From Candidatus Komeilibacteria bacterium (GTDB taxonomy: Bacteria; Patescibacteriota; Patescibacteriia; UBA1558): a stretch of 64,000 nucleotides of DNA. Location of the stretch: contig JBLYPW010000003.1 in assembly GCA_048538275.1 (NCBI GenBank), positions 15,248 to 79,247 on the forward strand, written 5' to 3'. Under the pieces are notes generated by a model, which worked only from the letters and a program-made list of their open reading frames with translations, had not been told where the DNA came from and made no database searches. The position numbers and the translations under genes are program-made. Positions 32,901 to 49,731 of the stretch are shown piece after piece. How positions within the stretch are numbered: the first letter of the stretch is position 1; each line of letters opens with the position of its first letter.

Positions 32901-35900
32901 GTGGGCTGTGAAGAATTTACTAATTTAGATAGAAATGAAGCGTTAGAATATTATAGTGATCTGCGTATGTGTGTATCAGAAGCGGATGTAGATATAGCCA
33001 CTTATTATACTTGGGAGGGATCGGATACGGCCGGTTATCAGCTGAAGACTTGGCGTTTGTTGAAAAGTAATGATAATGATGGCCCTTGTACAAATATAGC
33101 TTTTGATGGAGAAAACAATATTTGCGTTGATAGTGAAGTGAGTGCGCCTGCTTGTGATACTAGTGCCGGTGATGATTGTCGTACTTTTATTGATGCCGAG
33201 CAAAATAGTTTTGTAGTGAACCAAGCGCAAGTTATCAAAGCTAGCGCCGATTGCACGCTTGTGCGGCGCACTGCAAACCCTCAGGATATTGCCGTCATTT
33301 TGCCTAGCGAATCAAATAGTTGTACAGTTGCTGCTGTTGGTTGCCATGCTTATCAAGGCAATAGCGCTGGTAATACGCGCATTATAAGTTATGATGATTT
33401 TGAAAGTGGTCAAGCCGGTTGGAGTGGCGGTGGTTTGACGACAGAGTCTTTAACAGCCGGTGGACATTCGCTTTGGAGCAATGGTGATATAAACAAATCT
33501 TTATTCATTAATGATAATCATAGTTTCACCCTTTCCTTTTATGCCAAGAGGCAAGAGATCGGTAATTCTAATTTGTCAGCTCAATTATTGGTCGGTGATC
33601 ATGTTTATGATTTGGGGAGCGTTGCTATTAATGATGAGTGGCAACAGTATGCCTTGGGTCCGATAGGTGTTCATGAAGCTAGTAGTGAGATTTTGGAAGC
33701 GACATTGCAATTTTCCATTGGTAGTACGACAGGCTATTTTTTGGATAATATAAATCTTAAGCAAATTAATTCTGATTTGTATTTATTAGCTGGTTCTTGG
33801 CAAACACCAGATATATGTTTGAACGGTAATAATGGTCCGGTGCTGGGCTGTCAGGAGTATAAGGACGTAGCTAATAATAGCCATCATCTCTATCAGTTTT
33901 CATCTTTATGCGGTGAGGATAAAGTAGGTTGCAGCGCCTTTATAAATACGCAGAATAGCACTAGTCCTTTAGCGCAGAGCTGGCCGATGGGAGCGGATGA
34001 TGAGATCATTACTGTGTCGGCTGATAAACTAGTTTATCTGGTGGATCGTCCTGAGTTTAGGTGTGATGCTGGGGTCCAAGGTTGTTCGGCTTTGGGTGAA
34101 CCGGTGATGCAAACAGATCCGGCCACTGGTAATCAGAGCGTGGCCAGCTGGTCTGATGTCTATAAATTGAATAATCCGGATAATTATGAAGGTTCTTTGT
34201 GTCGGGAAGATGCCTTATATTGTCGGGCCTATCAAAGTGATGAAGGCGTTGTCTATATCACTGATCCGGGCGACAAGACTTGCGCTTATCTGGAAAATTA
34301 TACTTACGATGGCACAACTTATGAGCCGGGCTGGTATTTGAGCAGTAGTTTATCCGGCGAGCCACAGGAGTGTGGCCCAGGCATTGAGCTACCAAAACGC
34401 CGTGACGACAACTACCAAGGTTATGCTGGTTTATGCATTCCAGAGGCCAATGGTTGTACCGAGTTTATTGATCCGGTAGGTACTACCGGCGATGATTTGA
34501 TCCGCAATGGTAATTTTGAGTTTAATAATAATACGCTTACTACCCCAGATTTTTGGAGCTATAATAAGAATTTGGCTGATAATATTCGTTGGGATGCGAG
34601 TGAGGGCTGGGATGATAGTTATGCTGCTAGTGCTCTTTATGCTGATAATACGTCTTATGTGCAGAATATTTCAGGATTATCTGGCGGTGTAGATTATGTG
34701 GTGCGCATAAAAGCCAAAGGAATTGCCAATGGTGATAGACTACGTCTTGGTTTGGAGTGTGAAGGAGCAAATATTAGCTCCCGAGACAATAGTTTTATTA
34801 TCAGTGGTAATGTGGGTGATAGGCAATTTATCATTAATAATACTAATGGCGATTTTGTAGATGTCTCGGCCAAGTTTAGAATCAACAATAATATAGATAA
34901 TAATAGTTGTGATATAAGTTTAGGATTTGCGGGCAATGATTTAGATGGTCGTTATTTTGATAATGTTAGTGTCAGGCGCTTGCAGTCTTATTATTATATA
35001 AACGATGACAAGCTTAATGGCGTTAGTTGTAGTGGGCAGGTTTCACAGGATAAGGGGTGTGTTTTGGTAGAAGATACGTCACAATTGTCATTGGATGATG
35101 GGCAGATAATCACTCAGTATGATAGTAGTAGCACGTATCATAATAGCACACAAAATAGTGGTAATTTGGTATTGCCAGTCAGTTGCCAAGATGGATCAGT
35201 CGGTTGTGATGCTAATCGTATTATTAGTGTTAGTCGTGATCGTCAATGCTCAGAGTGGCTAGCTTGTCAGTCTTCTACTGTTATCACTCAGCCTGATGGT
35301 AGCCAACAACAATTGTGCTATGATCTCGGTCGTTGTACTCAATTGTCGCCGGATGGTACGCAATGTTTACAGTGGGTGGATAGGCCGGTGACAGAGAAGC
35401 TGGATGTGGCTAAGTACCAGTCTCGCGAAGTAGGCTGGTCGGGGCAGGATTATAGTGGTTATTCTTTGTTGGATATACCGCCTTTGGAGACTTTGGTGTC
35501 TAGTGCCAATAATGATACTTTGACTTTGCATTTGCCGACTGGCACTGAAGGTATGTCATTTAATTCCATATCGCCCTCTTGTCGTCTTTATCCCAGCACC
35601 AATGCGCCGTTTTCCACAGAGAATATGACTGTCCGACGAGATGATAATGGTAATATTATAAGCAAACCGCAGACTTTTGCGCAGGCTAATCTTTGCGATG
35701 AAGGCGGCGCTGGTTGTGAGTGTAGCTATCGGGAGATAAGTTATAGTCAGGGAGAAACTAGGTATTATGGTTTGGACTATCAATATCCTGATGCTATTAC
35801 TCACACGGATGGCTCTCCAGACAGTACTATAACCAAGATAAATGAATATCGTGGCGCTTGGGGATTCTGTTTACAAAGAGATATGTCCCGTACTATTCAA

Positions 35901-38567
35901 GGTGTCGGCGGTCAAGAACATCCTTGTATTACTTGGTTGCCATTGAATATATTAAGCGGAGAATATGATCCTAATGCTGTTGATGTGCAAGCTTCATTAA
36001 ATTTGCCTATCGGTAATATGTATTATTGCGCTGCAGGTAGTAGTGACGAAGTAACTCTGCCATCTGGTGATTATAGCAGTCTTGTACAATTTGGAGATAT
36101 GTCCCAATTAGATAGCGGTGATCTGCCACAGGGTGGGTGGACGGCGTATCCGAGTAATGTTTCTAATCAGCAAGGGTCGTCTTGCATTAGTTATCCTGCT
36201 GCCAATCAGGGAACTAGTTGGATGGAACTTTATGCCCCATCAGGTTCGTGTTATATAGAGAACAATAATTTGGGTGATGTTACGCTAGGTCCTGATAATC
36301 AATATCATTATCGTTTGACTTTTGAGTTGGGTGATATATATGGCACTATTAGTGATCAAATACCTTATTTCGCGGTTGAATTATCGTGTAATCAGACAGA
36401 CTATCTTGCTACTATTCCTGACGGTGGAAATGATGATGTTTTATTGGATATTAATTCTCCGGTTCCTTGTGATTCTGTTGTTGTGGGCGTTGTTGGTAGT
36501 GGCGAGGAAAGATTAATGCAGATCAGAAATTTAGTAGTATCTACACCTGATTATATTACGCAACAACAAACCATGTGTACCGATATAGTGCAAGTTGAAT
36601 ACCCCAAATTCAATCAATTAATTAATCCGCCTGTTACTTTGGCAGCTTGGCCCAATCAGTATAAAGATTGGTATGGACGAATGTCCGTCTCTGCTGATAC
36701 TGTTTTGAATAATTATAATACCCCAATTAATGTAGAGTCGGTGGGGCAGTTTTCTGGCGTGGATGTAATTAATAGTGCTGGGACACCTTATAGTAATATT
36801 TCTGGTAGTGAGGATATACCCTATTCTCAATGTGTGGGCGTTGCAGCTGCTGCGGGCGCCACTTGTGCCGGCGGTGAGAGAGAGGGTCAGTCATGCAGTA
36901 GCGACATGCAGTGCCCCGTGAATCACAATGATACTTGTGAAGGTTATATAGAGTCTCAAATTGATCAGAGCAGTTGTGATTATGAGGCTGGCCAATATAC
37001 TCATTGCGATACTATTCCTGAAGTTATGGGCACCTGTGTTAATTCTGGTGCTAGTTGTCGTGTTGATAATGATTGCGCTCCTTATAATACTTACGCTATT
37101 TGCCAATCAAGTAACGCTACATACGATTGTCACACAGACGAGGGTAAAGATAATTGTTATGCAGCCGGTGGTCGTTGCTTGGGTCTTGATACAGCTACTC
37201 CACTGACCGTATATAATCAGATTAATGATGTTGATAATACTGGATTTGCCAATGTTTTTAGTGTTATTAAGGAATTATTTGCAAAAATAGTAGCTCGTTT
37301 CAGTTGGTCAAATGGTAGTTATCAATCAAATAGTAGTGAAGTAGGCGGATCAATCAGTGATGCCGAAGTGGTCACAATCAGGCCAGTTATCACCCTTGCT
37401 GGCGAGGAGACAGCCGGATCTAGCAAGGGCATCACTATCAATAGCAAGACAAGCGGTGATATTTCTTTTGCTAAGGATAGTGCCAATGTTACCATGAAGT
37501 TTTATGCTTATAATGTAAGCGGTGATCAGATACCGTTGAATAATTTAGTAGTGGACTGGGGTGATGGTAGTATCTTTGGTGGTTCAGGTAGCGGGAATTC
37601 TATTGTACCAGGTGACGTGTCATTGAAAAATCATCAATCCATGTGTATTAATAATTGTTCTACCGGCATACTGGACGATGCTTTTGGTGCCCCGGCGTTT
37701 TCTGCTACTGCTAATAATTTTAATTTTTATGCTTATCCCAATACCCAGCACGATTGGCATTCAGGCTATGCTTATATGACGCAAAAAACAGGATATGATG
37801 CATCTAATAATTCAACTCGTAATTGGATGACATTGCGTTTGCCAGCGAATAAGATGAGTGCTATCCCTCGTTTTGCCGCCGGAGATGTGTTGACTTTGGA
37901 GTATGATTATCAAATTAGTCCTGGCTTCTTAAAGAATGGAATAGCAAATCATATTTGTTATGGTATCGGTTATTGTAGTCAAGGCAAGCAGTATCCCTTT
38001 TTGAGCTTTGCCACGCTTGACAGTATGGATGATTTTGATAGCCATGTTAATACTTGGGGACATTATAGCAGCACAGCCGTAGTGACCCCTGATATGGTTA
38101 GCGCTTGCGTGGATAATAATAATCCCTCCGGTTATTGTTTGCGAGAACTGGCGGTAGCGAATTTGCGTGATCAGGCATTGGCCTCCCCACAAACTATTAG
38201 AATTAAAAATGTTCATTTGTTGTGGGGTTGTCGTAATAATAATAGCTGTACGGCCAGCAAATTTGGCAATCTGGGTCAGTGCCAAGCCATAGATATCGGC
38301 GATGACTTGCGTTTTTGCGTGGATGACTATCAAAATAGCATTGGTTATTTTAGCTTTAATCATACTTATACTTGTGCTGATCCGAATCCACCTGGTGATA
38401 TTGATGGTAGTAGTAATTCTTGTATCTATAAGCCTAAAGTTTATATAGAAGATAATTGGGGCTATTGCACGGAGGGGAGTAGTAATGTTTGTAAAGATAA
38501 TTATTCTAATTCGATACAATCTACTGGTTGGTTTGAATATCCAGGCAGTATAAGATTAACACCATAG
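29928..38567 (+). CDS. Giant (2879 aa) secreted Cys-rich surface protein with three CBM4/9-like beta-sandwich modules
   Basis: Has a signal peptide (…VTPQPAHA/S), more than 100 Cys often in paired spacing, and three modules. The modules begin LLYNGGFE...GWYWSD...VYLDNVQLS, ISYDDFESGQAGWSGG...YFLDNINLKQ and LIRNGNFEFNNN...DFWSY...RYFDNVSVRR. It is one uninterrupted 8.6-kb ORF in an AT-rich genome. Confidence 0.7.
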   Translation: MFNPQQKLISSIVLVVMLFFVISGAVVTPQPAHASTFGVIAVNTAKWVWEKVGDIYTALKSRLSTTLITNSVDLFAQRMAVNMAKTLATGGRGQQPMFSTKVFNDVVKDAAGAAAGDFIGQLSSAWGDLGINLCEPSLDVKATITMSLLKSQKAPEPKCDLASVVRNWDSFIKTNTDPKALAEGLQVQFQTGKSDFSASFALNNKLLNQIKSDELVALFDTESQGYKSKTNTTNTEIQTPSSSVEDTAEAPAREASNAQLAKTFAAITSQDTIFGRALSTFGNTFLSQLLNRWILDGMNKLNNWKNSQVASTGGANSINFDNNSGPGPEAASAYYSNLISVSFNSVDDYTPTSDFTICPTTGIVPYNNCVMNQKFYSAFNRTQPMTVQQAIDAKLLSPDLPLISQDDPRNNDVNYCYNSALCYSNLQKMRLARLIPLGWEIAASISSANTPATMGEVLAAFDNPDSPYHNLIDPNWVLKEPRAQCLAMGPGPQLQSIGSDQRTEMCVDSQTCLRSDDNGECLPGAWGYCTREENIWRFGGQQCSPAYASCRNYKADGQTYSYIKDTLDFCTADEVGCQWYSVAQELGAAATETFSPPQVDFNNVPSTITYDQASADQFCLQRGYDFAQSYDQEGAGTGDIIWNSEQSSWELNTAAAPHAIISDISCVRQGYDWLADENIYLNAQAGDCDATDAGCTKLLPIQWGVNLLYNGGFEKVGSNNNRPDGWYWSDTDVSLTDNRSEVFAGERAVSTMNNYSYVYTDVPLIGGLPYYIAIAAKTNDSKAMGVTIKFYDSNDALIMPTNDDDIDIGDSSVVNWREGCGGGVCHFSGDLTITNQYVKYDLPFIAPEGAVKIIIGMGTGGAGSGDVYLDNVQLSLGNSAMSYRDYNSNSFNYLKIAPDYLDCSNSSSVECANYAPSCTAEEMGCQLYTPVNGDPAVAGVVNSGDYCSQSCAGLDQYWQKQTTIENMFGDDPAGAFVNFIPSSAQQCQVQDVGCEEFTNLDRNEALEYYSDLRMCVSEADVDIATYYTWEGSDTAGYQLKTWRLLKSNDNDGPCTNIAFDGENNICVDSEVSAPACDTSAGDDCRTFIDAEQNSFVVNQAQVIKASADCTLVRRTANPQDIAVILPSESNSCTVAAVGCHAYQGNSAGNTRIISYDDFESGQAGWSGGGLTTESLTAGGHSLWSNGDINKSLFINDNHSFTLSFYAKRQEIGNSNLSAQLLVGDHVYDLGSVAINDEWQQYALGPIGVHEASSEILEATLQFSIGSTTGYFLDNINLKQINSDLYLLAGSWQTPDICLNGNNGPVLGCQEYKDVANNSHHLYQFSSLCGEDKVGCSAFINTQNSTSPLAQSWPMGADDEIITVSADKLVYLVDRPEFRCDAGVQGCSALGEPVMQTDPATGNQSVASWSDVYKLNNPDNYEGSLCREDALYCRAYQSDEGVVYITDPGDKTCAYLENYTYDGTTYEPGWYLSSSLSGEPQECGPGIELPKRRDDNYQGYAGLCIPEANGCTEFIDPVGTTGDDLIRNGNFEFNNNTLTTPDFWSYNKNLADNIRWDASEGWDDSYAASALYADNTSYVQNISGLSGGVDYVVRIKAKGIANGDRLRLGLECEGANISSRDNSFIISGNVGDRQFIINNTNGDFVDVSAKFRINNNIDNNSCDISLGFAGNDLDGRYFDNVSVRRLQSYYYINDDKLNGVSCSGQVSQDKGCVLVEDTSQLSLDDGQIITQYDSSSTYHNSTQNSGNLVLPVSCQDGSVGCDANRIISVSRDRQCSEWLACQSSTVITQPDGSQQQLCYDLGRCTQLSPDGTQCLQWVDRPVTEKLDVAKYQSREVGWSGQDYSGYSLLDIPPLETLVSSANNDTLTLHLPTGTEGMSFNSISPSCRLYPSTNAPFSTENMTVRRDDNGNIISKPQTFAQANLCDEGGAGCECSYREISYSQGETRYYGLDYQYPDAITHTDGSPDSTITKINEYRGAWGFCLQRDMSRTIQGVGGQEHPCITWLPLNILSGEYDPNAVDVQASLNLPIGNMYYCAAGSSDEVTLPSGDYSSLVQFGDMSQLDSGDLPQGGWTAYPSNVSNQQGSSCISYPAANQGTSWMELYAPSGSCYIENNNLGDVTLGPDNQYHYRLTFELGDIYGTISDQIPYFAVELSCNQTDYLATIPDGGNDDVLLDINSPVPCDSVVVGVVGSGEERLMQIRNLVVSTPDYITQQQTMCTDIVQVEYPKFNQLINPPVTLAAWPNQYKDWYGRMSVSADTVLNNYNTPINVESVGQFSGVDVINSAGTPYSNISGSEDIPYSQCVGVAAAAGATCAGGEREGQSCSSDMQCPVNHNDTCEGYIESQIDQSSCDYEAGQYTHCDTIPEVMGTCVNSGASCRVDNDCAPYNTYAICQSSNATYDCHTDEGKDNCYAAGGRCLGLDTATPLTVYNQINDVDNTGFANVFSVIKELFAKIVARFSWSNGSYQSNSSEVGGSISDAEVVTIRPVITLAGEETAGSSKGITINSKTSGDISFAKDSANVTMKFYAYNVSGDQIPLNNLVVDWGDGSIFGGSGSGNSIVPGDVSLKNHQSMCINNCSTGILDDAFGAPAFSATANNFNFYAYPNTQHDWHSGYAYMTQKTGYDASNNSTRNWMTLRLPANKMSAIPRFAAGDVLTLEYDYQISPGFLKNGIANHICYGIGYCSQGKQYPFLSFATLDSMDDFDSHVNTWGHYSSTAVVTPDMVSACVDNNNPSGYCLRELAVANLRDQALASPQTIRIKNVHLLWGCRNNNSCTASKFGNLGQCQAIDIGDDLRFCVDDYQNSIGYFSFNHTYTCADPNPPGDIDGSSNSCIYKPKVYIEDNWGYCTEGSSNVCKDNYSNSIQSTGWFEYPGSIRLTP

Positions 38568-38638: not shown

Positions 38639-39889
38639 TCATTTCAACAAAATCATCTTATATGTTTTGTTGAAGTTACCGGCCCGCAACTGGTAGAAAT
38701 AGATTCCCGTTCCAACTTGCTGTCCGGCATTATTAAGACCATCCCAAACCACGGCCTGATACCCTGCTGCTTTTTCATCGTTCACCAAAATTCGGATTGG
38801 TTGACCAAGCTGATTGAAGATGGTCAGGCTTACCAAGGCTGGTTCGGGCAGTTCATATGATATGACCGTACTGGCGTTGAACGGATTGGGATAGTTTTGC
38901 TCTAGCGAGTATTGCTGTGGCATTGACAATGAATTGGTTGGAATAATAGCGGTCACCAGGTCAGTACTCACAATGTCTCCTTGATAATTGACCATCCAAA
39001 GGATCCCGTTCTGATCCTTCATAATATCATTGAATAGCACACTTATACCGGTAGGGTAGCTTTGCCACGAGTTGCCATTATCAATAGAGTGATGCATATC
39101 GTGTCCAGCGGTCACGATTTCTGTCGGGCCTGCCATGAACAAGGTCATGGTGTAGTCATTTGGGTTGGGATTACTGATTTCATCCCATGTTTGGCCATTA
39201 TCATTGCTTTGCAATAATAAACCTCCCAAAGCTGCAAAAACAGTGCCGTTGTTGTGATCCATATCATATACACGGCCCTCTGAGACGTGATCGCTAACAA
39301 TGGTCCAGCTTTCACCATAATCAATTGATCTGAGCATGACATACGGATCGCCACCGGCTAAGAGTACGCCATTACCCAAATAATCAACACAGTATAAGTA
39401 ACTCTCAGTCACGCCGGCGCCGACTTGGGTCCATGATTCCCAACCGTCTGATGTTTTGATAATAAATCCATCGTCACCTACTGCAATCGCATCATTGTCT
39501 GACCAAAATACCAGGTCGTGAACCGGATGTCCGTCAAGGCGTTTCCATTCCCAGTTTAAACCAGCGTCAACACTTTTGATTATAACGCCATGGCCTAAAG
39601 AGGCCCACCCGCTAATATAAAAAATACTGTCATCAATTGCAACCATTTTTTTTAAGTGCCAACCTAGATTTTGTTGCAACACAAAATGATCAGACTCCGG
39701 CGTTTTCAGAAGCCAGGTGCCGTTGGCACCGACCATATTGATATTGCCATTCGGTTGAATGGCAATGCTGGACAGGCTGTAACCTACCGGACTTTCCCAG
39801 TAGGTAAACTGTACGTCTTGAGCTTCCTGACCAAGCAGGTTACCGTTACTCAAAATAACCAAAATCATTAAAGACATCATCTTTTTCAT
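38639..39889 (-). CDS. Secreted BNR/Asp-box repeat beta-propeller protein with T9SS-type C-terminal sorting domain (paralog 1)
   Basis: A signal peptide is followed by Asp-box motifs (KSVDAGLNW, SIDYGESW, SNDNGQTW, SIDNGNSW). The C-terminus NYPNPFNASTVISYELPEPALVSLTIFNQLGQ...GIYFYQLRAGNF matches the Por secretion CTD pattern. Confidence 0.6.
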   Translation of the reverse strand: MKKMMSLMILVILSNGNLLGQEAQDVQFTYWESPVGYSLSSIAIQPNGNINMVGANGTWLLKTPESDHFVLQQNLGWHLKKMVAIDDSIFYISGWASLGHGVIIKSVDAGLNWEWKRLDGHPVHDLVFWSDNDAIAVGDDGFIIKTSDGWESWTQVGAGVTESYLYCVDYLGNGVLLAGGDPYVMLRSIDYGESWTIVSDHVSEGRVYDMDHNNGTVFAALGGLLLQSNDNGQTWDEISNPNPNDYTMTLFMAGPTEIVTAGHDMHHSIDNGNSWQSYPTGISVLFNDIMKDQNGILWMVNYQGDIVSTDLVTAIIPTNSLSMPQQYSLEQNYPNPFNASTVISYELPEPALVSLTIFNQLGQPIRILVNDEKAAGYQAVVWDGLNNAGQQVGTGIYFYQLRAGNFNKTYKMILLK

Positions 39890-39989
39890 GATGAGCCCTC
39901 CTTTTTCTTTAATTTATTGTTTTGTTAGTTTTCAAGGTTCTTTATCTCCTGAAAAAGGGGATAAATTATCACTTTTATGATAACATATT

Positions 39990-40018
39990 ATCATACATTA
40001 TTTTAGTAGATTTGTCAA
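39990..40018 (-). promoter_or_regulatory. Promoter of paralog 1 (minus strand): TTGACA-N17-TATGAT
   Basis: The minus-strand read is TTGACAaatctactaaaataatgTATGAT. The identical sequence recurs upstream of paralog 2 at 41509-41537. Confidence 0.45.
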
Positions 40019-40192
40019 GCTAAGTAGGGCTGGCTCATTTTTTTTAATATTTCTTCCCTTATTTGATTTTTCTAGCTATAGTACCAGATTGATTAGGGTC
40101 AATCCAGCCTAGCTAGTTCAATCGTGCTTTGTACAGGTGGCAAATAAAAAAGCCGATCTTTGTTAAGACCGGCTTGGTTTATTTTTTGATTA

Positions 40193-41443
40193 TTATTTTA
40201 TTATTGTTAGTTTTCTACTCAGTTGTTTATTCTGAGCAGTTATAACAACAATGTATGTGCCACTGGCAATATTGCCCGGTGACCAGTTAATCTCGTGCTG
40301 CCCAGCTGTTTGCCAGTTATTTATCAGCTGAGCCATTTGTTCACCTTTCATATTATATACAGACAGTTGAACTTGCCCGGACTGTGGCAGTTCATAGCTT
40401 ATGACCGTACTGGCATTGAAAGGGTTGGGATAATTGGGCAAAAGCGCATAATCCTGTGCGCTTATTGGCTCGGTTTCAAGGGCGGTGATATTGTATTCCG
40501 CACTTAAAATTATTCCGTTATAGCTGATAGTCCACAAGACTTCATTAATTTTTAGCTGGGCGCTGAAGAAATCCATACCGTCCAGTGGAGGATCAATGAT
40601 ATGTGACTGCCAAGTATTGCCATGATTTTCTGAGGCGTGTAATAGTTGGCCGCCCGTTATTATTGTCTGTTCATTCACCACAGTAAGCACCGTAGTCGGA
40701 TCAAAATTATCCGGAGTAGTAGGATAATTTATCACATTCCAGCTCAATCCCGCGTCATTACTGATCAAGATGGCATCCAGAGCGGTTGCATATATGGTAT
40801 TGCCACTGGTTTGCATTGTGGATATGCCCCAACCACCTATATTATACATAACCAATGACCAGGTGACGCCATAATTATCAGAGCGATAGATGCTATTGCT
40901 AAAGGGGTAGCTACCCATCAGCAAAACACCGTCACCAAGTTCCAGTAGGCCGTTTAAGCCGCTGCTAATGTCAACGCTCATTACTTGCCAACTGGACCCG
41001 CTATTCATTGATTTGGCCATAAAGCCGTTTGCCCCTACTACCAACATAGTTGAATTTGATAATTCAATTATGTCATAAATATGGGTTGCTTGGTTGAAAA
41101 CGGTTTTTGTCCATCCCGACTCATCACCTCGCAACACATATCCTTCGCCACGACTATGACCACCGACAATATAGAAATTATTGTCAGAGCTTAGCAGGGC
41201 ATCATACACTTCTTCGTGATCCAACTCTTTTATGAGCTGAAGACCAAATTCTGTATCATCCGGTGCTTTTTTGAGCCATATCCCGTTATTGCCGAATACA
41301 TTGATTGTGTCATTATTCGGTACGATGGCACGCAGCTGGCCAACCACTGGTGGATGATCCCAACTCATTATATTGGTAATACCAGCTATTGCGGTATTAT
41401 ACACCAATGATATTGCCAAGGTTATAATAAAACTTGATTTCAC
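40193..41443 (-). CDS. Secreted BNR/Asp-box repeat protein with T9SS-type C-terminal sorting domain (paralog 2)
   Basis: Same length (416 aa) and architecture as paralog 1. Asp-box motifs are SMNSGSSW, RSDNYGVTW, SNDAGLSW and SENHGNTW. The C-terminus NYPNPFNASTVISYELPQSGQVQLSVYNMKGE...GTYIVVITAQNK follows the same CTD pattern. Confidence 0.6.
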   Translation of the reverse strand: MKSSFIITLAISLVYNTAIAGITNIMSWDHPPVVGQLRAIVPNNDTINVFGNNGIWLKKAPDDTEFGLQLIKELDHEEVYDALLSSDNNFYIVGGHSRGEGYVLRGDESGWTKTVFNQATHIYDIIELSNSTMLVVGANGFMAKSMNSGSSWQVMSVDISSGLNGLLELGDGVLLMGSYPFSNSIYRSDNYGVTWSLVMYNIGGWGISTMQTSGNTIYATALDAILISNDAGLSWNVINYPTTPDNFDPTTVLTVVNEQTIITGGQLLHASENHGNTWQSHIIDPPLDGMDFFSAQLKINEVLWTISYNGIILSAEYNITALETEPISAQDYALLPNYPNPFNASTVISYELPQSGQVQLSVYNMKGEQMAQLINNWQTAGQHEINWSPGNIASGTYIVVITAQNKQLSRKLTIIK

Positions 41444-41508
41444 GAGAAACCTCCCTACATTTTTGGTTAAAGTACAATTTTTATAGCTAAGCTATAAATA
41501 ATTATATT

Positions 41509-41537
41509 ATCATACATTATTTTAGTAGATTTGTCAA
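41509..41537 (-). promoter_or_regulatory. Promoter of paralog 2 (minus strand): TTGACA-N17-TATGAT, abutting the repeat element
   Basis: Identical 29-nt promoter block to the one at 39990-40018. The -35 hexamer ends exactly at the left inverted repeat of the element. Confidence 0.45.
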
Positions 41538-41675
41538 CCCCGTTAGAGGTTTAGATAATTTTTTAACCTATTTTTACTATAGTTTTGCTTAGGTTTTGTG
41601 TCTAGTGTTTTTTAGTTACACTATATTGTATATGGTGTAAGAAAGTGTATTTATAGACCCAAACCTCTAACGGGG
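41538..41675. repeat. MITE-like intergenic element, copy A (138 bp) with 15-bp terminal inverted repeats CCCCGTTAGAGGTTT ... AAACCTCTAACGGGG
   Basis: It is about 85% identical over its length to copy B at 49732-49866. It has perfect terminal inverted repeats, is AT-rich internally and has no ORF. Confidence 0.6.
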
Positions 41676-41739
41676 CGGGTCTTCAAGAGATGATAATTTT
41701 CTGGTATAATAATAATGTAATTTATAACCGGTCAACACC

Positions 41740-44700
41740 GTGTTAAAACCTTTTCGGCCAGCGAAAAAAAAGAATGGCTATCGGCAACTGCGGGCAGTAC
41801 AATTACCCCTGGTTGTCTTGTTTTTGTTGGTGGCGGGAGCCGCTCTGTTTTGGTTGGTACCGCAGCCGGTCTTGGCTGTTGCTAGTATTAGTGATGCCAT
41901 TGCTAGCGCTCTAGCTACTATTTTGAATTGGGTGCTGAATTTTATTGGCAGCTTGATTAGTTCTATCCTCATACCCGTATTATCGCAATTGGCTGTTTTT
42001 AATGACTTTACCGGCTCCGGAGCCGTGGTGCAGGGATGGAAGTTGGTGCGTGATATCTGCAACATGTTTTTCATTGTCATGATGTTGGTGATATCAGTGG
42101 GTACAGTATTGAATATATCTTCTTATAGCTATAAGAATTTTCTTAAAAAGATTATTTTTATGGCTATTTTAATAAATTTTTCTAAAACCATTGCTGGTGC
42201 TTTGATTGATGTCGCGCAAATCGTCATGCTGACTTTTGTCAGCGCTTTCAAGGATAGCTTGATCGTGGGTTTTGCGCAGGCTTTTGGCTTGAATAAATTG
42301 ACCAGTTTAGGGACTACTGTGAATGACGCTGGCTATGTTGAAAAAGACAATTGGTCTATTTTGATGGGCGTTGTTTTTGCTATAGTGATAGCGGCCATAT
42401 TAGCGATTGTTTTGATTGGTATGATTATTATGTTAGCTGCCCGTATTGTGATGTTATGGGTTTTGGTAGTCTTATCACCCTTTGCGTATTTGGCCAATAT
42501 TTTGCCCGGCCGCTTGTCTTCATTGGGTGGACAGTGGTGGAAACAATTTACTGATCAGTTGATAGTTGGCCCGGTAATTGCCTTCTTTTTATGGTTAGCT
42601 TTATCTGTTGCCGGATCACCGGGTGGTTTTATTGGTGAAAACGTTGATACGAGCAATCAGCCTACCAGTTTGATTGACAGTAGCTTGGCTAATGCTAGTT
42701 TTTTGATGAATTATGTGATGGGTATTTTGATGTTGATAGTGGGTATGAAAATGGCTAAGAGCATGGGTGGAGCGGCCGGCGCTGCTTTTGGTAAGGGCAC
42801 TGGTTGGGCGCAGAAATATGGTTGGCAAGGGGTCAAGGGATCTTTCAAAGGCGTTGGCAAGTCTGTTTCTTGGGCTAGAGATGCTAGTAAGGCTTTTGGT
42901 CGTAAAGGGGGTAGTAAAGAATATTTGGATGAATTGGATCAAAAACGTGACGCCTATGCTGCTCGGGGTGGCGTTATGGGAACTTTAAATTCTTTGCGCT
43001 TGGCACGTAAAATTGATAAATATAAAGGTAGGGAAAAGAGTAGAAAGGAAGCAGCGGGGATTGTTTTGAAAAAATTTGGTTTGGATGGCGAGGCCGCTCA
43101 AAAGACTTTAGTGACTGCTAGTCAAATAAGGGAAGATAAGAAAAAAAATAACATTAAGAGAGTAGTTGTTGATGAGGTAAGTAAGGAGTTTGCCGGTGAT
43201 GATAAATTAGCGCAAGTGAAGACAGATATTAAGACGAAAAAAGCTAAGACATTGTTATCTGGTGATAAAGAAAGCGCGATGATGAATTATTATGCTGATA
43301 AAGAAATCAACGTCACCGAAGAAGATAAACAGGCTTATCGTGAAAAAAATCCCTCTGCTATATCGCCAGATTATGATTTGACTGATGATCAGCTGCGTGA
43401 AGTCAGGGAACAGAAAACCAAAACGGCCTGGCAAAAGTTGAGCAAAAAGGAACAAGGTGAATGGCAGGACAGGTTTTTGCAGGATATAAATAATAAACCA
43501 TTTCTCAATGAACAACCAGTTACTGAGGAAGATATAGAGCAGTTCAAACAAGAAGAAATAAATCAACGTACGGAAGCAAAGTTGAAAGATTTTACTTATA
43601 GGCCACGGGGCATGAGTATGACCGCTCCGGCTAATATTATGCGCTATGCGGTTGACTGGGCTAAGGGCAAACAGGAAGACCGTTTGAATATGGAAAAATT
43701 AGGTCAGGTTTTGCCCGCTAATCCTGACTCTTTTAGAGCTTATAATATTTTGGATCCATTGAACGCAGTTAAACCAGCGGCAGCAGAAGCGATCATGAAA
43801 CAAATGGACGCGAATGCAATATATAAGCAGTATAAGCATTTGGATGACAAAGTAAATGATGCCGAAACCAAAGAAAAAAGACAAAAGGCCAATAAAGCAA
43901 GAACAGCATGGCTAATGGGAGCCCAATTTCTTAAGGGAAAATTATCTCAAGTGGATGAGTTCCTTGGTCGTTTACCAGATGGTGTGAGCGTGGTGCAGCC
44001 TGATGAAAAGGTTGAGGCGTTAAGTAGTGTTAAAATAGAAAAATCCAAACGTGATTTCCGTGTGGACAATACCGATATTGAAAAAATGGAAAATACCAAG
44101 CGTGCCGCCATGGAACACATGATAAGCCTGGGACCCGAAGAGACGGTAAATAGTATTAAAGGTGAGTCTGGCTGGCAGATTGACACGACCAATTCTGACT
44201 TGGATGCCGATCAGGTGGTGCTGAAAAATGGTGATCAAAGTCAAACTATGACTACGGATCAATTTGTACGTAGCAACGGCAAGTTAATGTCGGAGCGATT
44301 TTATGATAGCGCTAGCGCAAAAATGGGTAGTGATAATTTTGTGGAGAAAGATAAGTTTGATGACTATACTCGGATACGTCAGAGTAGCCAATATGGCGTT
44401 ACTTTGCGGGCCGGCAATGACAAAGCAGCGGTTGATTTTGATCGTTTGCAAGAAGTAGTTGGTGACAAATTGGATATAAACGATATAGCTTTGCAAGGTG
44501 AAAATGTTAATGGTGATGAAGCTGTGATTATTGCCAATGGTATGCGACAAATGATAGAAGAGCAAAAGCAGGCTTTGGCTGACAGCGAAGATGAAGAACA
44601 GACCAGGCAGATATTGTTTGATTATTTTGGTAAAGATACGTCGGCCTCTGGTGAAAAATTGGCAAAAATAAAAAATGAAACCTTGATAAACGCGGATGCC

Positions 44701-46875
44701 AATATAGCAAATTTGGACATGGCCGATGCCACAAATGTTCAAACAATGCGTGAAAATGGTTTGCGTTTATTTAACAAACATCGGGCGGGCGGAGAGATAA
44801 GGCAGTTGTACGAACATGAAACTAAACATGGTTGGTTGGATAAGGTTGATCCGGATAAATCTATGCGCCAGCAAGCTTGGGCCGATATGACAGAGACAGA
44901 TCGCCAGGCTGCCAAAGATTATATTATACGCACGAGAGGCGAGGGTGATTGGACTGATGAAGAAATCGCTGGTGAGTATTTGGTGGATGCTTTGCAAAAA
45001 CGGCAAAGCAAGGATTCGGCTGAACGACCACCAGAGTTACCACAAGCTATTAAGCGACGTTTCACGGAAGCAGAAGATTATCAGATAAGTGAAGAATCTG
45101 GCTCAGCAGTAGATCATGAGTCTATGATCAAGACTTTAGCCGGTAAATATGTTGCTCGTAAAAATATCAAACAGCAAGATTATGAACAATCAGCCAGAGA
45201 ACAAAATACCTCTTTCTTGAATGCGGCTGCCAGAGCCGAGCAAGCGAACCAGCAAGCCAAAGTTGAGTTTAAGACAGCGACTAGTAAAGCACGACAAGAC
45301 AGCATTGGCAGCGCGCCCCAATCTATTGGCGGTAGCCAAACATTTGTTAGTACTGCACAGCGAGCTGATTTGGAAAAACGTTTTGGCCGCACTCTTTCTA
45401 GTGAAGAAGTTAAAAAATTCTCCGATATGAAGCGTAAAGAATTGAACCAAACAATAGAGGGGGAAAAGGCCAAGCAATTACGACAACAAGAGTCTGAGCG
45501 CGCGGCCGAGCTTAGTAAACAATATTATAGCGAACAAGAACGTAAACAGGATTATCTACGCAACAAAGCCAAGGAAGTTAATAAATATAGAGACGAGCAA
45601 AAGTATTATAATAATAATGCGGCAGCTCGTCAGGTGATAGCTGATAATGTAAAAAGTGGTGACTTGCCTATTGGTCAGTTAATGAAAATGAGTTCTACGG
45701 AAAGACAAGAACAACTTACCAATCTTTTACAACAAGCTGTCAAAGAGGGCGGGCTTGATGTGCAAGCTGAGTCATTACCCGCTATTGTTAACAATATAGA
45801 GGCGCAGCTGGATACAGAGGATATTAAAGTAGGTAACACATATGATCAAGGAGTAGCTTATCAAGCTTTACAGAGTCAGGCTAAGACGGATAAGAAGCTA
45901 GCAAATGATGCTGGTAAAGAAGCTGATAAATCTGTTAAATTTTGGGACAAAGAGATTACCAAGATTGATAGATCTGCTGGTCAGATAAAGACACGGGCAG
46001 AAAAAAGCGCGGCAGCTGCCAAGGCAACGACGACTGGCGGAAGTGATGCAATATCATCAATGCGCCAGGAATCAGCTAAACAACAGTCTGGCAAAAGACC
46101 AGTAGCGCCCAGCACAAGCAGTCGTTCTGATAATATGCCCGCTACTGGATCAGATGGAGTTGAACGAATGGAGCAGCGGTCAGAGCAGCGGTCAGAGCAG
46201 CGGTCAGAGCAGCGGTCAGAGCAGCGGTCAGAGCATGAGCGTAAGACCGACACGAGGACGCAATCCAATCAGACCGGGTCGGCTGAAAAGAAGGCTACGG
46301 ATCGTGTGATTCGTAGTGAAAAGAATACTATCACTTCGTCAGAAGCTGGCGCAAAGCCTGCCAGTCCGACAGCTGCACCGGCTGCCAAACCGCTTGGCAA
46401 AGCGACAGAGGCACCTTCTCAGCCAGCAGGCAATATAACTAGTACGGTTGAGCAGAGTGATAAAGTAGTTGGATTGTTAAATGATATTAGAGGTTTATTG
46501 AACGGACGTACTGGTCCTATAGCAGCCAGCAATACGTCTGTTATGGGACAGGCTTTGATGTCGCCGCAGCAATTTAAGTTATTAAAAAAACAATTTCAGT
46601 CTTTGGCCGCCAGTATAGCTGCCAATAAATCAAGTCAGAAAGTACTGGGTCAGGAAACAATGGATAAGTTAAATCACGTGAATAGCGCCTTACAGTCCAC
46701 GCAAGTAGATGATGATCATGATGTTGATATTGATTTGACAATGCAGGCAATGGATATAAATCCGTCCGACCTGGCCGCGATTTTAAAGAAAGTGGAGGAG
46801 CAACAAAAGAAAGATGCGGAAGATGATCAGGATGATGATATCCAGCCGCCCGCTAATTTACCAACAGCCACTTAG
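41740..46875 (+). CDS. Giant (1711 aa) polytopic membrane protein with about 1350-aa charged, low-complexity C-terminal region; VirB6/TrbL-like architecture is speculative
   Basis: The N-terminal roughly 340 aa have 6-8 TM helices. Downstream are a Gly-rich linker (GGAAGAAFGKGTGW) and a long E/K/Q/D-rich region with coiled-coil character that contains a (EQRS)5 repeat. Confidence 0.6.
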   Translation: MLKPFRPAKKKNGYRQLRAVQLPLVVLFLLVAGAALFWLVPQPVLAVASISDAIASALATILNWVLNFIGSLISSILIPVLSQLAVFNDFTGSGAVVQGWKLVRDICNMFFIVMMLVISVGTVLNISSYSYKNFLKKIIFMAILINFSKTIAGALIDVAQIVMLTFVSAFKDSLIVGFAQAFGLNKLTSLGTTVNDAGYVEKDNWSILMGVVFAIVIAAILAIVLIGMIIMLAARIVMLWVLVVLSPFAYLANILPGRLSSLGGQWWKQFTDQLIVGPVIAFFLWLALSVAGSPGGFIGENVDTSNQPTSLIDSSLANASFLMNYVMGILMLIVGMKMAKSMGGAAGAAFGKGTGWAQKYGWQGVKGSFKGVGKSVSWARDASKAFGRKGGSKEYLDELDQKRDAYAARGGVMGTLNSLRLARKIDKYKGREKSRKEAAGIVLKKFGLDGEAAQKTLVTASQIREDKKKNNIKRVVVDEVSKEFAGDDKLAQVKTDIKTKKAKTLLSGDKESAMMNYYADKEINVTEEDKQAYREKNPSAISPDYDLTDDQLREVREQKTKTAWQKLSKKEQGEWQDRFLQDINNKPFLNEQPVTEEDIEQFKQEEINQRTEAKLKDFTYRPRGMSMTAPANIMRYAVDWAKGKQEDRLNMEKLGQVLPANPDSFRAYNILDPLNAVKPAAAEAIMKQMDANAIYKQYKHLDDKVNDAETKEKRQKANKARTAWLMGAQFLKGKLSQVDEFLGRLPDGVSVVQPDEKVEALSSVKIEKSKRDFRVDNTDIEKMENTKRAAMEHMISLGPEETVNSIKGESGWQIDTTNSDLDADQVVLKNGDQSQTMTTDQFVRSNGKLMSERFYDSASAKMGSDNFVEKDKFDDYTRIRQSSQYGVTLRAGNDKAAVDFDRLQEVVGDKLDINDIALQGENVNGDEAVIIANGMRQMIEEQKQALADSEDEEQTRQILFDYFGKDTSASGEKLAKIKNETLINADANIANLDMADATNVQTMRENGLRLFNKHRAGGEIRQLYEHETKHGWLDKVDPDKSMRQQAWADMTETDRQAAKDYIIRTRGEGDWTDEEIAGEYLVDALQKRQSKDSAERPPELPQAIKRRFTEAEDYQISEESGSAVDHESMIKTLAGKYVARKNIKQQDYEQSAREQNTSFLNAAARAEQANQQAKVEFKTATSKARQDSIGSAPQSIGGSQTFVSTAQRADLEKRFGRTLSSEEVKKFSDMKRKELNQTIEGEKAKQLRQQESERAAELSKQYYSEQERKQDYLRNKAKEVNKYRDEQKYYNNNAAARQVIADNVKSGDLPIGQLMKMSSTERQEQLTNLLQQAVKEGGLDVQAESLPAIVNNIEAQLDTEDIKVGNTYDQGVAYQALQSQAKTDKKLANDAGKEADKSVKFWDKEITKIDRSAGQIKTRAEKSAAAAKATTTGGSDAISSMRQESAKQQSGKRPVAPSTSSRSDNMPATGSDGVERMEQRSEQRSEQRSEQRSEQRSEHERKTDTRTQSNQTGSAEKKATDRVIRSEKNTITSSEAGAKPASPTAAPAAKPLGKATEAPSQPAGNITSTVEQSDKVVGLLNDIRGLLNGRTGPIAASNTSVMGQALMSPQQFKLLKKQFQSLAASIAANKSSQKVLGQETMDKLNHVNSALQSTQVDDDHDVDIDLTMQAMDINPSDLAAILKKVEEQQKKDAEDDQDDDIQPPANLPTAT
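46171..46230 (+). repeat. Five perfect tandem copies of GAGCAGCGGTCA (12 nt) inside the 41740..46875 CDS
   Basis: They encode EQRSEQRSEQRSEQRSEQRS, and a degenerate sixth unit (GAGCATGAGCGT) follows. Confidence 0.8.
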
Positions 46876-46876
46876 T

Positions 46877-47686
46877 ATGGTTAAAGAAAAAAATGTTAAA
46901 CAATATCTAGAAGATGATGAAACAGCTGCCAAGCTGGATATTTTGAGTTATAAATATAATATTCCTGCGCGAGCCGTGGCGAGCGCGATATTGTCGGGTG
47001 AGTTACCGCATGATTTGGTCACCGGCTTTTTAGAAGAGGAGTTAAAGTTGGAAGCAGAACAAGCCAAAGAATTATGGATCAGTATTCAAGAAGTGATTAT
47101 TGCTCCTTGGCAAGATTGGCAGCCGGTCAAGACTACTATTGCTGCGCCAGAAGATAATTCTGGATCTATACATTTTCACAAGGATAGCTGGCGTGAATTT
47201 TTGAAACCGGATAATTTATTGGCCGCGCAAGCCGAGTTACAACGGGTCAGTAGCGGTCAGATAGCAAAAATAGTTGATTATTTATGGCAATCACTAGGCC
47301 TGGAGAAAAAGCAAGAAGTAATTACTATTTTAGTATATCTTGCAAAAAAAGGTCAGTTATTAAAATTGTGGCAAGACCATAGGCTAGCCGGTATATTACG
47401 TAAGTACTTGATAGTAGATAAACAATTTGGTGAGGCTCAGGTAGAAAAATGGCTCAATTCGCCTTGGACTGCCGGTATGTTGAGCCTAGCTTTGCGCCAG
47501 ATTTTACAGAGTAAACTTGGTTTTGATAATAGCGAGGCAGCACAAATTAGCTTGTCTATTATTGATCAGCTGGGGCCGGCCGATAAAGCTCGCTTTATTT
47601 TGATAGCTTATGTTGATACTAAAGATAATAAACTTTATTGGTCTGAGGTAGAGCCGGATGATAGCGGTTTATTGCTAGCGGTGTGA
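46877..47686 (+). CDS. Hypothetical protein (269 aa); start adjusted to the ATG overlapping the upstream stop (TAGTATG)
   Basis: The track ORF 46814..47686 overlaps the giant gene by 62 nt, whereas the internal Met at 46877 follows its stop codon directly. No motif was recognised. Confidence 0.45.
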   Translation: MVKEKNVKQYLEDDETAAKLDILSYKYNIPARAVASAILSGELPHDLVTGFLEEELKLEAEQAKELWISIQEVIIAPWQDWQPVKTTIAAPEDNSGSIHFHKDSWREFLKPDNLLAAQAELQRVSSGQIAKIVDYLWQSLGLEKKQEVITILVYLAKKGQLLKLWQDHRLAGILRKYLIVDKQFGEAQVEKWLNSPWTAGMLSLALRQILQSKLGFDNSEAAQISLSIIDQLGPADKARFILIAYVDTKDNKLYWSEVEPDDSGLLLAV

Positions 47687-47708
47687 GCTGTATAAAAATA
47701 TTAAAAAA

Positions 47709-47735
47709 CCTCTGCCCTAAGGCAGAGGTTTTTTG
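47709..47735. terminator. Hairpin CCTCTGCC-CTAA-GGCAGAGG followed by TTTTTTG, bidirectional between convergent genes
   Basis: 8-bp stem with a T-run on plus and an A-run upstream that gives a T-run on minus. Confidence 0.55.
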
Positions 47736-47754
47736 AACCTAATACAATTATGAT

Positions 47755-48312
47755 TTAAGCCCTTTCCACATATTCGCCAGTTTCGGTATTGACACGAATT
47801 GTGTCGCCTTGATTAATAAACAAAGGAGCTTTGATTTCCGCACCGGTTTCCAGCGTTACCACTTTATTAGCAGATCCAGCAGTGTCACCCTTGATTCCAG
47901 GAGGAGCCTCTGTTACTTTCAGCTCAACTTTGGTGGGCAGCTTGATTGATACTGGCTTATTATTAAATACTAAAGTATCAACTGTCATACCATCCATGAT
48001 AAAGTCAGCAGCCAAGCCAACTTCGTCCAAGTTTAGTTCAAACTGCTCAAAAGATTCATTATTCATAAAGTGAAAAGCGTCTCCTTCGCGGTAAAGAAAG
48101 TTAGCTTTTTGTCTTTGCAGGTTGGCTTCTTCTACTTTATCTCCGCCAGAAAAAGTTTTTTCCAAAGTTTGTCCGGTGACAAGATTTTTTAATTTAGTGC
48201 GTAGACTGGCGCCGCCGCGGGCAACTTTTATGTGTTGAGTATAGGTGATTTGATAAGGTTGGCTGTCTATATCTATGACCGTTCCTAGTTTTAGTTCACT
48301 CATTGATAACAT
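47755..48312 (-). CDS. efp: Elongation factor P, Arg-type loop (R at the position of the modified Lys)
   Basis: ...YQITYTQHIKVARGGASLRTKLKNLVTGQ...HFMNNESFEQFEL...GDTAG... runs through all three domains. Where E. coli has KPGKGQA, the loop reads VARGGAS. Confidence 0.85.
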   Translation of the reverse strand: MLSMSELKLGTVIDIDSQPYQITYTQHIKVARGGASLRTKLKNLVTGQTLEKTFSGGDKVEEANLQRQKANFLYREGDAFHFMNNESFEQFELNLDEVGLAADFIMDGMTVDTLVFNNKPVSIKLPTKVELKVTEAPPGIKGDTAGSANKVVTLETGAEIKAPLFINQGDTIRVNTETGEYVERA

Positions 48313-48351
48313 AAGTTTTATTTTAGTTAATAAGTGTATTTGATAAAAAAA

Positions 48352-48393
48352 CCCGCCCCAGTCCGTCGCCCGAAGGGGACGGACTGGGGCGGG
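48352..48393 (-). terminator. 16-bp perfect GC-rich hairpin CCCGCCCCAGTCCGTC-N10-GACGGACTGGGGCGGG downstream of rpsR
   Basis: On the minus strand TTTTTTTATCAAATAC follows it. Confidence 0.6.
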
Positions 48394-48403
48394 AGGAAAA
48401 TAA

Positions 48404-48637
48404 TTATTTACTGGTATAGGGGAGGAGAGCCATAAAACGAGCCCGTTTGATAGCTTGGGACATTATGCGTTGGTGCTTATTGCAGACTCCGCTACGTTTG
48501 CGCGGGACAATTTTACCATAGGAGGATAAGAACCGTTGTAGCAGTTGTACATTCTTAAAGTCAATATCAGCGATACCATTAACACAGAAATGACAGTATT
48601 TTTTATCAGTTTTTATCAATTGATTATTCTTGGCCAT
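48404..48637 (-). CDS. rpsR: 30S ribosomal protein S18
   Basis: ...CHFCVNGIADIDFKNVQLLQRFLSSYGKIVPRKRSGVCNKHQRIMSQAIKRARFMALLPYT is the S18 signature. Confidence 0.85.
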   Translation of the reverse strand: MAKNNQLIKTDKKYCHFCVNGIADIDFKNVQLLQRFLSSYGKIVPRKRSGVCNKHQRIMSQAIKRARFMALLPYTSK

Positions 48638-48662
48638 AATTTTTTAGTGATTTAAATCTTGT

Positions 48663-49594
<932 letters not shown>

Positions 49595-49702
49595 TAGGTC
49601 TCCATCTTACCCCACGGTGACTAAATCCGGGGGACTGTCGGCCGCGAACAGCCGATAGCACGGTTAAGACTAAATAATAAAATATACTTTAAAAGCGTTT
49701 GT

Positions 49703-49731
49703 ATTCTAGATTATATTGTTTTTTTTGTCAA
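49703..49731 (-). promoter_or_regulatory. Candidate rpsF operon promoter (minus strand): TTGACA-N17-TAGAAT, abutting repeat copy B
   Basis: The minus-strand read is TTGACAaaaaaaacaatataatcTAGAAT. It would give an approximately 105-nt GC-rich structured leader before the rpsF ATG. Confidence 0.4.

Follow-up and report, generated by a model that had tools for sequence, protein, structure and literature searches.

A probable, previously undescribed MITE family of CPR bacteria that adjoins promoter -35 hexamers

Introduction

The bacterial MITEs MITEAba12 of Acinetobacter, Correia (CREE) of Neisseria, RUP of Streptococcus and Nezha of cyanobacteria are small, AT-rich and non-coding elements with terminal inverted repeats; they are accompanied by short duplications, occupy intergenic sites, fold into long hairpins and interact with neighbouring promoters. 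Correia and RUP duplicate TA. The elements described below, which we found in a Candidatus Komeilibacteria bacterium and in further genomes and metagenomes, share all these traits at a size of 124–138 bp, yet they show no sequence similarity to any of the four systems, reside in CPR/Patescibacteria hosts, have an apparently low copy number per genome and duplicate 4 bp instead of TA. Moreover, they land on a pre-existing -35 hexamer instead of carrying an outward promoter, and they possess a covarying internal hairpin. Judged by the definition of a MITE and by the features of MITEAba12 (PMC6382973), the family fits in its small non-coding size, its terminal inverted repeats, its target-site duplications (seen in the relatives) and its empty orthologous sites, save that the autonomous parent was not found. 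MITEs as a category are already well known, and what is new here is the family, along with some unusual features. Our literature search retrieved no paper describing a MITE in CPR/Patescibacteria, nor did the terminal-repeat sequence occur in the literature searched, and the family appears to be the first MITE family described for these organisms. CPR genomes are ~1 Mb in size, leave minimal room between genes and are thought to contain little mobile DNA, which makes a family of this kind noteworthy.

Regarding autonomous transposons, IS1380 and piggyBac have in common 4-bp target-site duplications and 5'-CC...GG-3' termini (PMC10045372). Our family resembles both of them (e.g., ISEcp1 within the IS1380 family) in these two respects, but differs from IS1380 in that no IS1380-type transposase gene (Pfam DDE_Tnp_1_4) and no full-length IS with these repeats was found, and from piggyBac, which targets TTAA, in the T-rich nature of its target (TTGA, TTTA, TTCA, CTTG). 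Beyond the CC, the terminal repeat of ISEcp1 is also unlike that of the family. A third point of comparison is IS200, whose left-end hairpins act as a terminator against read-in transcription and as a stem occluding the ribosome-binding site. As in IS200, a perfect palindrome is fixed at a short distance inside one end of our elements, where it could plausibly shield them from outside transcription, whereas IS200 has neither terminal inverted repeats nor target-site duplications and uses an HUH transposase. Finally, the family hairpin is not followed by a T-run, unlike the IS200 terminator, and its shielding role is putative.

Results and Discussion

Two Copies in a Komeilibacteria Chromosome

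The window, i.e., the whole 64-kb stretch of DNA that was analysed, is ordinary chromosomal DNA featuring gyrA, leuS, ftsH, rpsA, tsaD/tsaE, a type IV pilus cluster, rpsF-ssb-rpsR and efp, along with two BNR/T9SS-tail paralogs and giant ORFs without any Pfam domain. The encoded GyrA is 100% identical to a protein from a Candidatus Komeilibacteria bacterium MAG (NCBI), and its next matches belong to Komeilibacteria, Parcubacteria and Patescibacteria. Exact-protein look-ups led to short Logan contigs only for S6 and LemA, and to no match for the M48 peptidase and the BNR paralog. None of the 40 window ORFs annotated with Pfam is a transposase.

Two copies of the element (hereafter A and B; Table 1) had been reported in a first-pass annotation of the window as ~138-bp units of ~85% identity ending in inverted repeats. 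Our re-reading and alignment agree with this description: the copies measure 138 and 135 bp, their interiors are 85.3% identical, and their terminal repeats are 15 bp long, with no mismatch in A and a single one in B. Allowing up to 3 mismatches, the 15-mer CCCCGTTAGAGGTTT occurs at four sites in the 64-kb window, all of which are element ends, while nhmmer searches with profiles built from A and B revealed no third copy in the same 64 kb. The absence of coding potential was likewise borne out (no ORF of at least 50 aa inside either copy), as was the predicted folding into a long stem-loop in which the terminal repeats form the closing stem, for which we computed -43.3 kcal/mol (z = -6.0) in copy A and -37.7 kcal/mol (z = -3.5) in copy B. 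In the window, no Rfam match overlaps either copy at E<=1, and in 12 related loci, Rfam returned only tRNAs at E<=0.1, with nothing over the elements.

Table 1. Positions, within the 64-kb window, of the two copies, their terminal repeats, the hairpin remnant and the promoters discussed in the text.
Feature	Position	Strand	Remarks
Probable MITE, copy A	41538-41675	.	138 bp; flanked by two divergent promoters, that of the 416-aa BNR/T9SS-tail gene (-) and that of the 1711-aa ORF (+)
Probable MITE, copy B	49732-49866	.	135 bp; spans the entire gap from the M48 peptidase stop codon (49867-49869) to the -35 hexamer of the rpsF-ssb-rpsR promoter
Left terminal inverted repeat, copy A	41538-41552	+	CCCCGTTAGAGGTTT; 100% complementary to 41661-41675
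Right terminal inverted repeat, copy A	41661-41675	-	AAACCTCTAACGGGG
Left terminal inverted repeat, copy B	49732-49746	+	perfect 15-mer
Right terminal inverted repeat, copy B	49852-49866	-	AAACCTCTAATGGGG; one mismatch
Weak internal-hairpin remnant, copy A	41616-41640	+	TTACACTATAT-tgt-ATATGGTGTAA; 11 pairs including one G-T
Host promoter TTGACA-N17-TATGAT of BNR paralog 40193-41443	41509-41537	-	-35 directly adjoins copy A; insertion target, outside the element
Host promoter TTGACA-N17-TAGAAT of rpsF	49703-49731	-	-35 directly adjoins copy B; insertion target, outside the element
Paralogous promoter of BNR paralog 38639-39889	39990-40018	-	no element; 'empty site' of the first-pass annotation

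Relatives of the Element and Their Target-Site Duplications

To define the family, genomes of GTDB species and JGI metagenomes were scanned for the two terminal repeats lying 90–123 nt apart, a search for exact repeats that biases the family sample and leaves diverged members hidden. It yielded 16 further loci, 2 in GTDB genomes (one labelled Patescibacteria) and 14 in JGI metagenomes, with elements of 124–131 bp located on unrelated contigs. There is usually one element per contig at these loci, vs. two in 64 kb in our window. Throughout the family, the ends read 5'-CCCCGTTAGAGGTTT ... AAACCTCTAACGGGG-3', with CCCC...GGGG termini, and the repeat of 15 bp extends to 17 bp in several relatives. 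As for the interiors, they fall into subfamilies that are unalignable with each other or with the type found in the window.

Once identical and orthologous loci had been merged and only loci with both flanks visible considered, 11 independent insertions could be examined in the relatives. Perfect 4-bp direct repeats lie directly against CCCC/GGGG in 8 of these 11 (TTTA, TTGA, CTTG, TGAA, TTCA twice, CAAG and CCTG), which has a binomial probability of ~1.6e-13 given the composition of the flanks. Such target-site duplications, variable in sequence but fixed in length, indicate a DDE-type transposon. Altogether, the two ~138-bp copies are very probably members of an undescribed non-coding MITE family of CPR bacteria, moved in trans. 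The first-pass annotation had already proposed a novel MITE-like element mobilised in this way, and its proposal is strengthened by the 16 other loci bounded by the same repeats, by the duplications at 8 of 11 insertions and by the element-free orthologous loci described below.

Promoters at the Insertion Sites

The left repeat of both copies had been noted to adjoin a TTGACA hexamer of the minus strand, which we can confirm: together with the promoter of the other BNR paralog (40018-39990), the promoters at these two sites (41537-41509 and 49731-49703) are the three best consensus matches (11/12) in the region 39800-50100. When promoters are defined by a -35 hexamer with at most one mismatch to TTGACA, a spacer of 16–18 nt and a -10 hexamer with at most one mismatch, a -35 hexamer is located 0–1 nt from an element end in 5 of 12 independent events, both window copies included. 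With a background of 2.3e-4 per position and strand, the expectation is 0.0037 per event (P~5e-10). The abutted hexamers are TTGACA or TTTACA, and the duplication falls inside the hexamer (TTGA/CA, TTTA/CA, CTTG/ACA), while the other duplications, i.e., TTCA, TGAA (the reverse complement of TTCA) and CAAG (the reverse complement of CTTG), are compatible with a loosely defined target of the type TTNAY / TTGAC. Typically, the elements sit 0–17 nt past the upstream stop codon, directly before a promoter. In agreement with the target preference for -35 regions that had been suggested earlier, the best reading of this pattern is that the element prefers a -35-like target sequence, the mechanism of targeting being inferred. 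In very compact genomes, the pattern is probably made sharper by selection in favour of insertions that do no harm, and the association with -35 hexamers could partly reflect the survival of insertions in such genomes rather than a transposase preference alone.

At face value, the adjoining promoters might instead be part of the element, and the first-pass annotation had indeed considered that it carries outward-facing promoter pieces. We examined this possibility in light of the 34-nt identity between two promoter regions (see below) and of the flank of copy B (~65–73% similar to these regions), and rejected it, as element-free relatives hold both promoters. On the one hand, the gene order LemA-M48-rpsF-ssb-rpsR-efp is kept in related Komeilibacteria (M48 peptidase 68% identical), and the M48-rpsF spacers of three such loci (L036-L038) contain the rpsF promoter, with invariant TTGACA and TAGAAT hexamers, and no element. 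On the other hand, a syntenic locus of 21 kb (L041) has the BNR-gene promoter (TTGACA-N17-TATTAT) and no terminal repeat anywhere. Since both promoters are thus present in relatives devoid of the element, they are ancestral targets and not cargo. Copy B itself is present in a Logan contig of the same species obtained from another sample (L040). Regarding the promoter that had been read inside the element (plus-strand TTGTCA-N17-GATAAT), the match is there, with 10 of 12 consensus positions, but this inward motif is confined to the subfamily of the window copies.

The upstream region of the other BNR paralog (39985-40020) had been interpreted as an empty site. This holds for one side only, where 39985-40018 and 41504-41537 are identical over 34/34 nt; to the right of TTGTCAA, the two sequences are unrelated, and the region is a paralogous promoter, not an orthologous site lacking the element. 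The two BNR paralog proteins are 32% identical. In L041, the promoters of the paralogs resemble each other as well (TTGACAAAA...GTGTATTAT), which indicates that the 34-nt identity reflects conservation or conversion of a promoter common to the two paralogs. A fuzzy search for further copies of this promoter stretch recovered just the two paralog sites, a second reason for rejecting the promoter as part of the element. The segment 39985-40018 also marks where the host sequence ends at copy A.

Internal Hairpin and Retention at an Orthologous Site

An internal hairpin of 10–14 bp, either perfect or with G-U pairs, exists in all 12 elements studied outside the window (12/12), at 3–4 nt or 15–16 nt from one of the terminal repeats. 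These hairpins, which are A/T-rich, have a GC clamp and lack a T-run after the stem. For eleven elements, only 0–2 of 300 shuffled interiors reach the hairpin, vs. 20 of 300 for the twelfth (L006), in which the stem is 7 bp when restricted to Watson-Crick pairs. In an alignment of seven elements, the helix has 13 pairs, of which 10 show compensatory changes, and 100% of the cells pair; this was matched by none of 500 shuffles, and slid controls pair at 39–52%. The closing stem, which is invariant through the way the sample was collected, gives no covariation evidence. Of the window copies, A retains a weak hairpin, whereas the corresponding stretch of B no longer pairs, and a terminator scan detected no intrinsic terminator (stem + T-run) inside either copy. 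The hairpin probably derives from the parent IS, where, for example, it may have terminated transcription entering from outside or insulated against it, or may have been structurally required for transposition; its function is inferred.

Two of the relatives, L001 and L009, are orthologous loci, with a class II aldolase gene upstream (69% identical) and a ferredoxin gene downstream. In both, an element occupies the same TTTA site and its terminal repeats are perfect (30/30 bases), while the two interiors are 60% identical. In the 14-bp hairpin, four pairs differ between L001 and L009 on both sides of the stem and none is broken. Such retention is unexpected, in that it is not predicted for a purely selfish element decaying neutrally, and it suggests that the hairpin and the terminal repeats are constrained in a way that neutral decay does not explain. 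The cause may be a requirement for transposition, co-option by the host (as a binding site, insulator or terminator), a hot spot at which elements re-insert or self-correction of palindromes. Read together, the covariation of the hairpin and the persistence of the element at orthologous sites suggest either that the structure is required for transposition or that the host has co-opted it.

Alternative Explanations

Could the window pair have arisen without any transposition, a block made up of promoter and hairpin having undergone local segmental duplication or gene conversion within this genome? The window copies do lack target-site duplications, their similarity continues for a few bases on either side (TTTGTCAA to the left, GTyTTCAAG to the right) and a 34-nt promoter is perfectly doubled at 39985-40018 and 41504-41537. 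However, the flanks of A and B (100–300 nt) are 47–55% identical, which corresponds to the aligner background and is reached beyond ~10 nt, and this argues against a segmental duplication. Moreover, the match in the left flank is the -35 hexamer, ancestral at both loci, the 34-nt identity is a property of the two paralogs with a counterpart in the element-free L041, and the same repeats occur on 16 unrelated contigs of other organisms, with target-site duplications; a duplication origin is thus extremely improbable. Copy number, flanks and Rfam were the points on which the first-pass annotation had staked its reading, and we find more than two copies, differing flanks and no match to an Rfam family. 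Slightly less improbable, though still very unlikely, is a gene for a structured non-coding RNA, or a regulatory RNA element, that would consist of the closing end stem and the internal hairpin and would not be mobile. It would account for the stability of the folds (z = -6.0 in A and -3.5 in B), the covariation of the internal helix and the G-U pairs of some stems (L006, copy A), but not for the variable 4-bp direct repeats flanking the unit, which are a hallmark of transposition, nor for interiors that are unalignable between subfamilies outside the hairpin. In addition, the strand permitting G-U pairs is inconsistent between members, Rfam provides no match, no conserved promoter or terminator bounds a transcript (TTGTCA-N17-GATAAT occurring in one subfamily only) and the closing stem, invariant by sampling, carries no evidence of covariation.

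A different question is whether an element of MITE origin has been exapted and is kept by its hosts as a module for cis-regulation or insulation, with a regulator (possibly derived from a transposase) binding the repeat at -36 to -50 or with the stem and hairpin insulating from, or terminating, upstream transcription. This would agree with the integrity of the 30/30 repeat bases and of the hairpin in L001 and L009 (four compensatory and no disruptive changes in spite of the divergence of interiors and proteins), with the strong covariation of the hairpin across subfamilies, with the position of the elements 0–17 nt past a stop codon and directly before a promoter, and with copy B standing in for a whole spacer of ~55 nt that includes a small hairpin. 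Yet the hairpin is degraded in A and lost in B, neither window copy has a canonical stem + T-run terminator, the orientation of the element relative to the promoter varies, close relatives manage without the element at both window sites and no binding protein is known. Besides, perfect palindromes can persist by template-switch 'quasipalindrome correction' without selection. On balance, we regard exaptation as unlikely. The same low standing is given to a related proposal, namely that of a promoter-docking mobile module repeatedly retained by CPR hosts, in which the repeat at -36 to -50 and the hairpin would form a regulator site or an insulator/terminator between packed genes. If true, this proposal would explain why repeats stay perfect and the hairpin stays compensated in orthologues whose proteins are 69% identical, and the associated transposase would be without precedent among known prokaryotic enzymes in targeting the -35 hexamer itself.

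Parent Family and Proposed Mechanism

Returning to a MITE family moved in trans, the elements display both signature features of the IS1380 family, i.e., the 4-bp duplication and the CCCC...GGGG ends. IS1380 is most likely the parent family, this being a signature match and not a demonstrated membership. Neither the window (Pfam) nor the fetched loci contain an autonomous parent or a transposase with these repeats. A search of all loci for a second repeat 1–2 kb off produced a sole candidate (L011, position 1833), which was discarded because the enclosed segment has a D-Ala-D-Ala-ligase-like ORF and a small ORF, and no transposase. Scanning IMG/VR with the 15-mer gave 16 singletons in unrelated contexts and no inverted partner with <=4 mismatches, which we took as chance occurrences. 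Similarly, blastn of copy A against plasmids and phages found nothing, an AT-rich Clostridium match (E~0.1–0.4) being rejected.

Other parent families agree less well with the ends and the duplication. TIMEs (Tn3 family) have 38-bp inverted repeats starting with 5'-GGGG and a 5-bp duplication. A Tn3/TIME origin was rejected, given ends reading 5'-CCCC inward, repeats of 15–17 bp and a duplication of 4 bp. IS630 (TA duplication), IS5 (GG/GA ends), as well as IS200/IS605 and IS91 (no duplication), were rejected on the same grounds of ends and duplication length.

The mechanism that we propose is that of a non-coding, non-autonomous DNA transposon of the cut or copy type. A DDE transposase, supplied in trans, would bind the 15-bp terminal repeats and make a staggered cut of 4 bp in the target, the subsequent insertion leading to the 4-bp target-site duplication. 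The favoured target would be approximately TTGAC / TTNAY, corresponding to the first bases of the sigma-70 -35 hexamer, so that insertions would often occur within the -35 box. The duplication would then restore an intact TTGACA on one side, the downstream gene would keep its promoter, and this restored promoter may be what lets the element persist in very compact genomes. By landing in a -35 hexamer that is rebuilt in the process, the element would avoid silencing the gene that follows, in this case the ribosomal-protein operon of rpsF. The family also offers a testable case of promoter-directed targeting in bacteria, and its terminal-repeat signature is a handle for finding the parent transposase.

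Junctions of the Window Copies and an Assembly Break

The ends of the two window copies are without a 4-bp direct repeat, A being flanked by TCAA/CGGG and B by TCAA/TTAG. In both copies, TCAA recurs 7 nt past the right terminal repeat, and the 7 nt in between are identical at 3 of 7 positions between A and B. At site A, these 7 nt lie between two divergent -35 boxes, which are separated by 19 nt in L041 and by 6–7 nt plus the element in the window. At site B, the element adjoins the stop codon of the M48 gene, the C-terminus of which is KLQSFNLEN* vs. KLRNMA* in relatives, and the M48-rpsF spacer of the relatives (~55 nt, small hairpin included) is missing, with copy B in its place. Either this subfamily has 7 extra bases or adjacent deletions occurred during or after insertion.

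As a side observation, A and B have a stretch of 34 nt in common. A Logan contig (L033) breaks inside copy B, and we considered this break as a sign of extra copies before rejecting it, since the 34-nt stretch suffices to break an assembly at k=31. The terminal-repeat signature explains at least one break in the assembly of a CPR metagenome contig, namely that of L033.

Element insertions and rearrangement breakpoints

Two genomes outside the window (L001 and L009), whose aldolases share 69% identity, carry orthologous insertions of the element between the genes for a class II aldolase and a ferredoxin. Both elements have perfect terminal repeats, and four hairpin pairs differ by compensatory changes. 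Among the other loci, L007 and L013 have the left flank and the element in common (94–98% identity) next to unrelated right flanks, with no target-site duplication for the element. In L008 and L010, the element and its right flank are common to both, and the left flanks diverge 33 nt away. Rearrangement breakpoints between strains coincide with the ends of the element. In locus L012, two copies follow each other head-to-tail, the abutted terminal repeats being separated by 4 bp (CCTG); after the pair, CCTG occurs again, along with an 8-nt terminal-repeat remnant (CCCCGTTA). This arrangement could be a tandem insertion, a circular or dimer-type junction, or an assembly artefact.

The Logan contig L033, from the same species as the window, terminates 22 nt into copy B. 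Copies A and B have 34 nt in common across the junction between repeat and -35 hexamer, a stretch long enough to interrupt an assembly at k=31. Metagenome assemblies of this organism are therefore fragmented by the element.

Coordinates of the features discussed in this section
Feature	Sequence	Positions	Size
Core promoters of the BNR paralogs	window	39985-40018; 41504-41537	34 nt
Giant ORF	window	29928-38567	2879 aa
Giant ORF	window	41740-46875	1711 aa
Tandem 12-nt repeat	window	46159-46247	about 6 units
Hairpin 3' of efp	window	47703-47734	14 bp
Rfam "PsrR1" match	window	47704-47774	
rpsF 5' leader	window (minus strand)	49595-49670	
rpsF 5' leader, aligned region	L036-L038	around 3480-3566	
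C-terminus of M48/HtpX-like protein	window	49867-49890	
Element, aldolase–ferredoxin	L001	6850-6978	
Element, aldolase–ferredoxin	L009	4343-4470	
Element pair	L012	1-210	
Contig end within copy B	L033	1-22	22 nt

Neighboring genes and regulatory signals

The core promoters of the two tandem BNR/T9SS-tail paralogs, which extend from the -35 hexamer to slightly past the -10 hexamer, are 100% identical, even though the paralogs themselves have diverged to 32% protein identity and about 50% DNA identity. The paralog promoters of the syntenic relative L041 likewise resemble one another. This pattern points to either gene conversion or a common operator.

The stop codon of the M48 peptidase gene immediately adjoins copy B, and the 3' end of this gene may therefore have been reshaped by the insertion; the encoded protein ends in KLQSFNLEN* in the window, versus KLRNMA* in five relatives. 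When aligned to three related loci (L036-L038), the rpsF 5' leader displays blocks conserved across Komeilibacteria (e.g., CC.CGGA..TAGTC and G.GGTA.GAT). It has no match in Rfam and may be a variant of the S6:S18 autoregulatory leader.

Downstream of efp, a perfect A-tract/T-tract hairpin represents a typical bidirectional terminator, and it explains the weak, sub-threshold match to "PsrR1", which is due to chance. Neither giant ORF of the window matches Pfam. The shorter one is conserved in synteny in L041 (1697 aa); its tandem repeat (GAGCAGCGGTCA) probably marks a part of this giant surface protein that is of low complexity or variable.
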